From Escherichia phage T7, in the sequence record MZ375274.1: a stretch of 36,786 nt of DNA; one strand, given 5' to 3'. A program made the position numbers and the translations under genes. Below, piece by piece: positions 9,952-11,769 of this stretch; the stretch's first letter is position 1, and every line of letters begins with the position of its first letter. The notes under the pieces were generated by a model. It was not told the DNA's origin. It worked only from the letters and a program-made list of their open reading frames with translations, and searched no databases.

Positions 9952-11694
9952 ATGCGCAAGTCTTATAAACAATTCTATAAAGAACTAGGAGGGAATTGCA
10001 TGGACAATTCGCACGATTCCGATAGTGTATTTCTTTACCACATTCCTTGTGACAACTGTGGGAGTAGTGATGGGAACTCGCTGTTCTCTGACGGACACAC
10101 GTTCTGCTACGTATGCGAGAAGTGGACTGCTGGTAATGAAGACACTAAAGAGAGGGCTTCAAAACGGAAACCCTCAGGAGGTAAACCAATGACTTACAAC
10201 GTGTGGAACTTCGGGGAATCCAATGGACGCTACTCCGCGTTAACTTCGAGAGGAATCTCCAAGGAAACCTGTCAGAAGGCTGGCTACTGGATTGCCAAAG
10301 TAGACGGTGTGATGTACCAAGTGGCTGACTATCGGGACCAGAACGGCAACATTGTGAGTCAGAAGGTTCGAGATAAAGATAAGAACTTTAAGACCACTGG
10401 TAGTCACAAGAGTGACGCTCTGTTCGGGAAGCACTTGTGGAATGGTGGTAAGAAGATTGTCGTTACAGAAGGTGAAATCGACATGCTTACCGTGATGGAA
10501 CTTCAAGACTGTAAGTATCCTGTAGTGTCGTTGGGTCACGGTGCCTCTGCCGCTAAGAAGACATGCGCTGCCAACTACGAATACTTTGACCAGTTCGAAC
10601 AGATTATCTTAATGTTCGATATGGACGAAGCAGGGCGCAAAGCAGTCGAAGAGGCTGCACAGGTTCTACCTGCTGGTAAGGTACGAGTGGCAGTTCTTCC
10701 GTGTAAGGATGCAAACGAGTGTCACCTAAATGGTCACGACCGTGAAATCATGGAGCAAGTGTGGAATGCTGGTCCTTGGATTCCTGATGGTGTGGTATCG
10801 GCTCTTTCGTTACGTGAACGAATCCGTGAGCACCTATCGTCCGAGGAATCAGTAGGTTTACTTTTCAGTGGCTGCACTGGTATCAACGATAAGACCTTAG
10901 GTGCCCGTGGTGGTGAAGTCATTATGGTCACTTCCGGTTCCGGTATGGGTAAGTCAACGTTCGTCCGTCAACAAGCTCTACAATGGGGCACAGCGATGGG
11001 CAAGAAGGTAGGCTTAGCGATGCTTGAGGAGTCCGTTGAGGAGACCGCTGAGGACCTTATAGGTCTACACAACCGTGTCCGACTGAGACAATCCGACTCA
11101 CTAAAGAGAGAGATTATTGAGAACGGTAAGTTCGACCAATGGTTCGATGAACTGTTCGGCAACGATACGTTCCATCTATATGACTCATTCGCCGAGGCTG
11201 AGACGGATAGACTGCTCGCTAAGCTGGCCTACATGCGCTCAGGCTTGGGCTGTGACGTAATCATTCTAGACCACATCTCAATCGTCGTATCCGCTTCTGG
11301 TGAATCCGATGAGCGTAAGATGATTGACAACCTGATGACCAAGCTCAAAGGGTTCGCTAAGTCAACTGGGGTGGTGCTGGTCGTAATTTGTCACCTTAAG
11401 AACCCAGACAAAGGTAAAGCACATGAGGAAGGTCGCCCCGTTTCTATTACTGACCTACGTGGTTCTGGCGCACTACGCCAACTATCTGATACTATTATTG
11501 CCCTTGAGCGTAATCAGCAAGGCGATATGCCTAACCTTGTCCTCGTTCGTATTCTCAAGTGCCGCTTTACTGGTGATACTGGTATCGCTGGCTACATGGA
11601 ATACAACAAGGAAACCGGATGGCTTGAACCATCAAGTTACTCAGGGGAAGAAGAGTCACACTCAGAGTCCAACAGACTGGTCCAACGACACTGA
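9952..11694 (+). CDS. 4: Primase-helicase gp4A with a 16-codon N-terminal extension from the gene 3.8 start, and a frameshifted C-terminus
   Basis: 580-aa ORF; [16 protein letters not shown] (gene 3.8 start with its RBS GGAGG) joins in frame to [23 protein letters not shown]... at 10000; Zn-ribbon cysteines and Walker A GSGMGKST present; ends ...ESNRLVQRH. Confidence 0.85.
10189..11694 (+). CDS. 4B: Helicase gp4B (internal start at Met64 of gp4A)
   Basis: In-frame ATG 63 codons after the 4A start preceded by GGAGG (aggaggtaaaccaATG), as in T7. Confidence 0.7.
11099..11121 (+). promoter_or_regulatory. Weak internal T7 promoter phi4c
   Basis: ACAATCCGACTCACTAAAGAGAG inside gene 4. Confidence 0.55.
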
Positions 11695-11769
11695 CTTCTG
11701 ACAGGATTCTTGACAGTTGTTTCATATGAAGAGATTGTTAAGTCACGATAATCAATAGGAGAAATCAAT

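Follow-up and report, generated by a model that had tools for sequence, protein, structure and literature searches.

A one-base insertion in the genome record of a laboratory-evolved T7 clone replaces the acidic tail of the gene 4 primase-helicase at a putative Cas9 target

The sequence analysed here, referred to as the window, is the complete 36,786-nt record MZ375274.1 of Escherichia phage T7, which we infer to be clone T7_210S, a laboratory-evolved, genome-reduced T7 picked as a small-plaque isolate. In the window, gene 4, which encodes the primase-helicase gp4, contains one additional C near its 3′ end, and the resulting change of reading frame removes the acidic, phenylalanine-terminated tail of the protein. 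The additional base is located in a short mutational hot spot shared with sister clones, and this hot spot coincides with a putative target of SpCas9. The insertion is most likely a real mutation, and the reading of it as a Cas9-escape frameshift in a viable clone that was caught as a small-plaque pick is given a probability of roughly 0.65. The acidic tail of gp4 and its terminal Phe constitute the textbook link between helicase and polymerase in T7 and are the basis of the polymerase-exchange model. The insertion represents a new allele of this well-known system, which is present in the public record but was left undiscussed by the paper describing the clones.

Alignment of the window to the T7 reference genome NC_001604 (positions of which are given as ref) placed the extra base at window 11669/11670 (gagtCCaacag), which corresponds to the step from ref 13233 to ref 13234. 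It is the sole 1-nt indel in the unique part of the window (about 36 kb), two apparent insertions at ref 14276 and 14279 having been recognised as alignment artefacts at a deletion junction. Within the 1.7-kb gene 4 block it is accompanied by two single-nucleotide polymorphisms (SNPs). The gene 4 frame, read either from the ATG at 10000 or from the annotated upstream ATG at 9952, stops at the TGA at 11692-11694, and the adjoining frame ends with ...TDWSNDTDF and the TGA at 11699-11701. The protein comprises 564 amino acids (aa) in the window and 566 aa in the reference: it lacks T558-F566, the last nine residues including the terminal DTDF, and gains seven residues, including two Arg and one His. 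The acidic stretch EEE...E556 upstream of the frameshift is kept. The new frame stops after seven codons, and no second, compensating indel was found downstream in gene 4. As the genes 4A and 4B share the same 3′ end, every gp4 subunit would carry the mutant tail. An earlier note on this DNA, written from the sequence alone, had proposed the identity of gene 4, the extra C, the switch of frame and the loss of the acidic, Phe-terminated tail, and all of this was borne out by the alignment, in which the reference gp4 ends in TDWSNDTDF and not in ESNRLVQRH.

Apart from its terminus, the protein appears complete. The Pfam domains Zn_Ribbon_Prim, Helic-prim_T7_N, Toprim_2 and DnaB_C are all intact and above the cut-off, and since the DnaB_C helicase core reaches only to about residue 509, it is solely the tail beyond the recognised domains that is altered. 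Through residue 557 the sequence equals that of gp4 in PDB 6N7I except for A83S and E343Q, and it diverges from residue 558; E343Q was engineered into the 6N7I construct. Other gp4 sequences from PDB agree with the window protein over the same range and part from it at residue 558. An ending in F or Y after an acidic stretch was found in 59 of 69 gp4 homologues (41-95% identity). The window gp4 does not have such an acidic, aromatic-terminated tail, and its assignment as gp4 is based on descent and domain content. The insertion allele was absent from all 50,697 phage records searched and from the contigs of IMG/VR, and the exact frameshifted protein was found once in public data, namely as QZB84940.1 from the window's own record. 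The number of this protein accession fits into the gap between those of T7_210L (MZ375273) and T7_220L (MZ375275), on which the assignment of the window to T7_210S is based. The features discussed here are collected in Table 1.

Table 1. Features of the window and of sibling clones; positions refer to the window unless stated otherwise.
Feature	Position	Strand	Description
Gene 4A, primase-helicase coding sequence	10000..11694	+	Frameshifted, 564 aa (580 aa from the upstream ATG at 9952, GenBank-style)
Gene 4B, helicase-only form	10189..11694	+	Internal ATG with GGAGG ribosome-binding site; from in-frame starts, reference 4B at 11754
ORF 4.2 frame	11423..11701	+	Reference gene 4.2 (hypothetical, ref 12988-13326); now 92 aa, ending ...TDWSNDTDF
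Putative SpCas9 target	11657..11680	+	Protospacer CACACTCAGAGTC[C]AACAGAC (11657-11677) and TGG motif (11678-11680)
Extra C (+C), gene 4 tail	11669..11670	+	CC dinucleotide, one C more than wild type (ref ...gagTCaacag...); alignment to NC_001604
New out-of-frame gp4 tail	11671..11694	+	AAC AGA CTG GTC CAA CGA CAC TGA = NRLVQRH and stop, replacing TDWSNDTDF
Deletion junction, genes 4.3-4.7	11713..11714	+	Removes ref about 13278-14272; 12 nt 3′ of the original gene 4 stop
Gene 5, DNA polymerase	11770..13884	+	704 aa; partner of the gp4 tail
gp5 G295C	12652	+	GGT>TGT; 4-5 residues upstream of a basic stretch in the thioredoxin-binding domain
gp5 K404T	12980	+	
gp2.5 D139G	8300	+	In the gene 2.5 mutation cluster; in no other record
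+AG, T7_270S (MZ375286)	ref 9742; gp2.5 at 7655-8395 of that record		gp2.5 tail; last 37 residues changed to a basic sequence, 246 aa
G9734T, MZ375289	452-1030 of locus sequence examined		gp2.5 E193*, 192 aa
+AG and +A, MZ375262	449-1150 of locus sequence examined		gp2.5; +A at ref 9782 (40 nt downstream) restores the frame, 233 aa
+G, T7_220S	ref 27280		Intergenic, six bases downstream of the phi13 start
In-frame ATA deletion, T7_240S			Ligase gene
13-nt deletion, T7_240S			Gap between gene 17 and the holin gene

The clones originate from the CiPGr study, in which E. coli with SpCas9 and a spacer library with repair templates served as the host for about 300 passages of T7 (PMC9825161). Spacers were designed against all genes not known to be essential, and some essential genes also have spacer targets. 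Every ten transfers the eight largest (L) and the eight smallest (S) plaques were picked; each clone went through three rounds of streak purification before Illumina sequencing, and SOAPdenovo was used for the de novo assembly. Escape from CRISPR was reported in the same study, with about 23.5% of the T7 point mutations located in regions of the spacer or the protospacer adjacent motif (PAM); gp2.5 is listed there among the "deleted or disrupted" genes, one- and two-base deletions are reported only for T4, and the gene 4 insertion is not mentioned (PMC9825161). Genes 3.5 (lysozyme), 4 and 5 are directly recognisable as those of T7 among the ORFs of the window, which is nevertheless a genome-reduced phage and not wild type, a point missed by the earlier note. 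Compared with NC_001604, the window is without genes 0.4-0.6, 1.4-1.5, 1.7-1.8, most of 3.8, 4.3-4.7, 5.3 and the 19.5 region, and it contains about 39 substitutions. The deletion of genes 4.3-4.7, close as it is to the gene 4 stop, is also present in siblings without the extra C. For comparison, ten complete sibling genomes were used together with the window (11 assemblies), and nine partial sibling loci were added later, giving 20 sequences in total.

The sequence CACACTCAGAGTCAACAGAC followed by TGG (ref 13222-13241 and TGG) is the only NGG protospacer that covers the insertion site, and the extra C is located at -8/-9 from the PAM, within the PAM-proximal seed. Two further alleles affect the same seed in the same population and change codons at the start of the terminal nonapeptide: T13233C (gp4 S557P), detected in ten sibling records from transfers 130 to 300 and in none other among the 50,697 phage records, and C13237T (gp4 T558I), detected in one record, MZ375283. 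T13233C, the insertion and C13237T thus occupy positions -9, -8 and -5 from the TGG PAM. In contrast to the insertion, which was seen once and destroys the terminus, S557P and T558I are missense changes that keep DTDF. The occurrence of S557P in large- as well as small-plaque isolates over transfers 130 to 300 indicates that it is probably near-neutral. A spacer matching this protospacer was presumably part of the selecting library: ORF (open reading frame) 4.2 is hypothetical and nested in the 3′ end of gene 4, and would therefore have qualified as a CiPGr target.

Site-specific pressure of this kind appears to have acted on the whole genome, as the variant sites are clustered across the clones. 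There are 27 pairs of sites within 20 nt of each other; random placement yields 6.3 +/- 2.5 such pairs, and 27 was never reached in 5000 simulations. Clustering was used in place of a test for enrichment of all SNPs in seeds and PAMs, which was judged uninformative because NGG is so dense that nearly every base falls into some seed. Ten of the 16 variant clusters map onto one NGG protospacer each, a PAM G or a seed base being hit in several. Tight clusters with alternative substitutions in different clones were observed at ref 7854-7870, 23910-23914, 33010-33019, 36241-36261 and 37460-37471 (window 7117-7133, 20989-20993, 30089-30098, 33320-33340 and 34539-34550), some of them in the essential genes 10, 16, 17 and 19. 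Together, such clusters would permit the reconstruction of the effective spacer set from the genomes alone.

Whether the extra C is a real mutation can be judged from the company it keeps. Five small indels were found outside the terminal repeats in the first 11 assemblies (Table 1), four of them within 20 nt of a variant in another clone. The three frameshifting ones (the gene 4 insertion, the +G of T7_220S and the +AG of T7_270S) are either intergenic or confined to the final 16% of an ORF, an arrangement that random errors would produce with a chance of about 0.012; small indels are thus not only rare but also spare the bodies of essential ORFs. Two further single-base indels were detected in the nine partial sibling loci and are outside this estimate; one of them, the loss of an A at ref 10682 in MZ375283, is again close to the 3′ end of its gene, gene 3. 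The context of the insertion is not error-prone, being a single C that became CC with no long homopolymer. Furthermore, a de Bruijn assembler outputs only k-mers that are found in the reads, so that the insertion is expected to be present in the reads of the clone. The earlier note had left the choice between a sequencing or assembly indel and a functionally significant mutation; this was a fair choice to pose, and the evidence leans clearly toward the mutation.

The expected consequences can be drawn from what has been described for the gp4 tail. Acidic tails bind to basic patches on the DNA polymerase gp5, one of which, in the thioredoxin-binding domain, serves polymerase exchange. Without its 17 C-terminal residues, gp4 supports a processivity of about 4-5 kb compared with 16-17 kb for the wild type, and synthesis is reduced to roughly 15-50% depending on the assay. 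Leading-strand synthesis is not abolished by this truncation, since other helicase-polymerase contacts remain. The plasmid-borne constructs of the Richardson laboratory, gp4-deltaC17 and the terminal-Phe mutants, are reportedly non-complementing. Like these mutants, the window gp4 retains its domains but has lost the aromatic residue at its end and, with it, the distal acidic residues contacting the basic patches of gp5/thioredoxin, and a weaker tethering of the polymerase and a lower processivity are expected. Unlike gp4-deltaC17, it loses only nine residues, which are replaced by seven rather than deleted, and unlike the plasmid-borne constructs the allele resides in a plaque-purified phage genome, implying viability. 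The statement of the earlier note that tail-less gp4 is reported not to support phage growth found no support in the literature examined, where removal of the 17 C-terminal residues reduces leading-strand synthesis and does not abolish it. In the solved gp5 complex PDB 6P7E, a DTDF peptide stands in for the gp4 tail.

The following sequence of events would account for these data. Phages entering cells with this spacer would survive only with mutations in the seed, and a +1 insertion in the seed of the protospacer at the overlap of gene 4 and ORF 4.2 would arise or be enriched as a CRISPR escape. S557P, being compatible with large plaques, would spread, and T558I and the insertion would be rarer solutions. 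The deliberate picking of the smallest plaques would favour weak but viable variants, by which the insertion could have been recovered. In such a phage the primase and helicase domains would be intact and the last nine residues including DTDF lost, so that the tail would presumably no longer tether gp5/thioredoxin via the basic patches of the polymerase. Polymerase loading, polymerase exchange and fork processivity would fall, with tail-independent contacts between helicase and polymerase still replicating the 36.8-kb genome. The predicted outcome, a viable but possibly slow phage, fits the small-plaque origin without proving it. In its location in the PAM-proximal seed of an NGG protospacer, and in the presence of several independent alleles in sister clones, the insertion resembles CRISPR-escape mutations known under Cas9 selection. 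It differs from the escape substitutions of the CiPGr clones in being a +1 frameshift inside an essential gene, which would be tolerated only because it lies nine codons from the stop.

Several points weigh against an escape frameshift in a viable clone. The protospacer of CACACTCAGAGTCAACAGAC is only a putative library target, and because any one spacer makes up a minor part of the library, the selection it exerts is weak and would not be enough alone to make a costly frameshift frequent. The insertion is missing from 220S and 230S, which are later isolates of the window's deletion lineage and small-plaque picks as well, and for this reason the plaque phenotype cannot be assigned to it. Support for the extra C in the reads can be expected solely from the way the record was assembled. 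Exact-protein look-ups with the annotated gp4, the alternative gp4 starts, the ORF 4.2 fusion and the private gp2.5 variant gave no match outside NCBI and hence no second assembly of the clone, and a protein serving as a lineage-wide marker matched only GenBank records and no Logan assemblies. The inserted state, TC, is what results when the common alleles T and C are placed side by side, and a mis-joined polymorphic site in a mixed sample could in principle give it. Finally, gp4 lacking the tail or the terminal Phe is reported, in complementation work of the Richardson laboratory (Notarnicola in 1997 and Lee in 2006), to fail to support the growth of T7 lacking gene 4.

The last points lead to the alternative that survives best, an artefact of assembly or consensus calling in which the T and C alleles at ref 13233 were written in tandem, either because the T7_210S sample held both or because the site was mishandled in building the record, the gp4 of the actual phage being in frame and either wild type or S557P. 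Both alleles do share a local haplotype, A83S being combined with T13233 in 180L, 190L and 260S and with C13233 in 230L; still, a SNP bubble in a de Bruijn assembly resolves to one path and not to an insertion, and the clones had been streak-purified three times. Small indel noise is present in the terminal 130 nt of the assemblies, but no similar artefact occurs at about 100 other polymorphic sites in the 11 assemblies, and the remaining indels of the series have the character of mutations under selection. The insertion is a singleton and the predicted defect of the protein is reportedly lethal, against which stands the SNP pattern of the window, which forms a coherent single genotype. An artefact is on balance unlikely, although the chance is an appreciable one.

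A second alternative accepts the mutation and explains its tolerance by specific compensation in the replisome, i.e. by gp5 G295C or K404T, in the manner of the gp5 suppressors of gp2.5 without its terminal Phe. Suppressors in gene 5 of an acidic-tail defect have a precedent, to judge from the title of Marintcheva et al. 2009. In the window, five of six changes that appeared private in comparison with nine siblings are located in replication genes (gp2.5, gp3, gp4 twice and gp5), and searches with allele-specific 41-bp megablast queries were used to test which of the window's changes are indeed private. Only the insertion and gp2.5 D139G remained private among the tested changes (gp16 F206L at window 28291 was outside this test). 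Two other clones, 250L and 280S, share the gp3 substitution T107M, and four share gp4 A83S; none of them contains the insertion. As three of the supposedly private replication changes are shared with clones lacking the extra C, the signal of compensatory mutation was dropped.

The gp5 candidates deserve separate consideration. G295C is rare, being found only in the window and in T7_170S, both small-plaque isolates, and it is situated 4-5 residues from a basic stretch that is probably the tail-binding basic patch reported by Hamdan et al. in 2005, in general agreement with the literature examined. T7_170S, however, has G295C together with a wild-type tail and precedes the window by 40 transfers, so that the selection of G295C was not a response to the frameshift. 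K404T is found in 17 of the 20 sequences (it is absent from OL964739, MZ375251 and MZ375264), and all clones whose gp2.5 tail is disrupted have it, but it predates the tail mutations. The gp3 and gp4 changes likewise are shared with clones having a normal tail. For the earlier note's idea that the mutation would need compensation we found no evidence, the candidates in gp5, gp3 and gp4 being population polymorphisms that also occur in clones with a wild-type tail, and a compensation specific to the insertion has a low probability. A related and only slightly less doubtful possibility is that T7 forms plaques with all of its gp4 lacking the DTDF tail, and in sister clones with the acidic tail of gp2.5 removed, in a population made permissive by gene 5 through K404T, which is nearly fixed, and G295C.

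The mutation could also be real but incidental, having arisen by spontaneous slippage unrelated to Cas9 and having been fixed by plaque bottlenecks or by the choice of small plaques. To turn C into CC, no more than the duplication of one base is needed, weak variants are enriched by the sampling design, and in a large library no single spacer selects strongly. Yet a chance event would have had to land on the very nucleotide step of S557P, at a distance of 3-4 nt from T558I, and thus to hit a few bases out of 36.8 kb, and the genome-wide clustering of variants points to site-specific pressure; we consider chance slippage improbable. Still further down is translational recoding, in which some ribosomes would shift by +1 near the insertion, for instance at the AGA of the new frame AAC AGA CTG, and make gp4 with a wild-type tail: AGA is rare in E. 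coli and +1 shifting stimulated by rare codons is known there, but inspection of 11655-11701 revealed neither a slippery codon for the P site (a tRNA-Asn bound to AAC is unable to re-pair on ACA) nor an upstream Shine-Dalgarno stimulator, the insertion is not conserved and is absent from all relatives, and hexamers with even one defective tail are said to be impaired in the work of Lee et al. from 2006, so that this idea can be practically set aside.

In favour of an escape frameshift as the best explanation, a second tail in the same clones provides a parallel. The gp2.5 protein likewise ends in an acidic tail with a terminal Phe, which reportedly binds gp5 in the same region and for which the variants gp2.5-delta21C, delta26C and delta-F232 are known, and to these the alleles E193* and +AG of the siblings can be added. 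Like the gp4 tail in the window, the gp2.5 tail has been hit by disruptive mutations at a hot spot, in CiPGr clones that are viable (270S, MZ375289 and MZ375262; Table 1), and a substitution in T7_220S represents a fourth state of the protospacer in the gene 2.5 tail (ref 9728-9747 and CGG). The occurrence of +AG alone in one clone and of +AG repaired by +A in another is a pattern of selection and not of assembly noise. The two cases differ in that gp2.5 is a single-stranded DNA-binding protein, and in the window itself gp2.5 is unaltered save for D139G in its core. Viable clones without the gp2.5 tail are unexpected in view of the literature on truncations of this tail.

If the insertion is real, a viable phage without the gp4 terminus, purified three times, would be a natural in vivo test of the importance of the helicase-polymerase link. 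If, in addition, the population has become permissive through gene 5, the tether between tail and polymerase, which has been held essential on the basis of plasmid complementation, would be conditionally dispensable in vivo and genetically suppressible. Should reads confirm the insertion and the clone prove viable, the losses of the gp4 and gp2.5 tails would together challenge the assumed in vivo essentiality of both, and 210S, 220S (wild-type tail) and 230S (S557P) would form a near-isogenic allelic series on confirmation by reads. Should reads not confirm it, the finding would be a record error only. In more general terms, spacer libraries directed against small overlapping ORFs such as 4.2 can push escape mutations into the essential gene beneath, and genome records from such experiments hold loss-of-function alleles that have gone unremarked.

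Further observations concern the neighbourhood of gene 4. Owing to the insertion, the ORF 4.2 frame runs into the displaced frame of the gene 4 tail, and the predicted product, ending in the acidic TDWSNDTDF, is hydrophobic; there is no evidence of its expression. At the other end of the gene, the deletion in gene 3.8 (ref 11254-11542) places the leader of gene 4A in frame behind the ribosome-binding site, the start codon and the initial 10 codons of 3.8. The resulting fusion, at window 9952-9999, creates a possible N-terminal extension of 16 residues ahead of the zinc-binding domain of gp4A, and GenBank lets gp4 start at the upstream ATG in all clones with the 3.8 deletion (582 aa; 580 aa in the window). 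A "DNA polymerase" of 738 aa annotated in some siblings was considered as another frameshift and rejected, as it is merely an N-terminal extension of the annotation resulting from a different deletion.

The ends of the genomes are less uniform than their interior. The terminal repeats vary among the assemblies (window 99 and 36536-36624; the first ~130 nt in siblings), most assemblies have an 18-nt deletion at ref 99-116, indels of 1-2 nt are scattered over the first 35 nt, and short repeats are rearranged near the right genome end. These differences look like assembly noise or variation of repeat arrays, unlike the clean unique region.

Substitutions were also detected at critical positions in promoters of the T7 RNA polymerase. 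The change of phiOL at +1 (A>G) is present in 11 of the 11 full assemblies and that of phi10 at +1 (G>T) in 10 of 11, whereas phi13 is changed at -11 (G>A) in the window, 220S and 200S; in the window the promoter substitutions are located at 387, 19983 and 24342. They may represent Cas9 escapes at protospacers ending in TATAGGG, and class III expression could change as a result. In gene 2.8, the dinucleotide TA is replaced by GT at window 8798-8799 (ref 10071-10072) in 19 of the 20 sequences; in the siblings gene 2.8 is unannotated and the annotation of endonuclease I begins further upstream, giving a longer N-terminus. This exchange may have been engineered or may represent an early escape.

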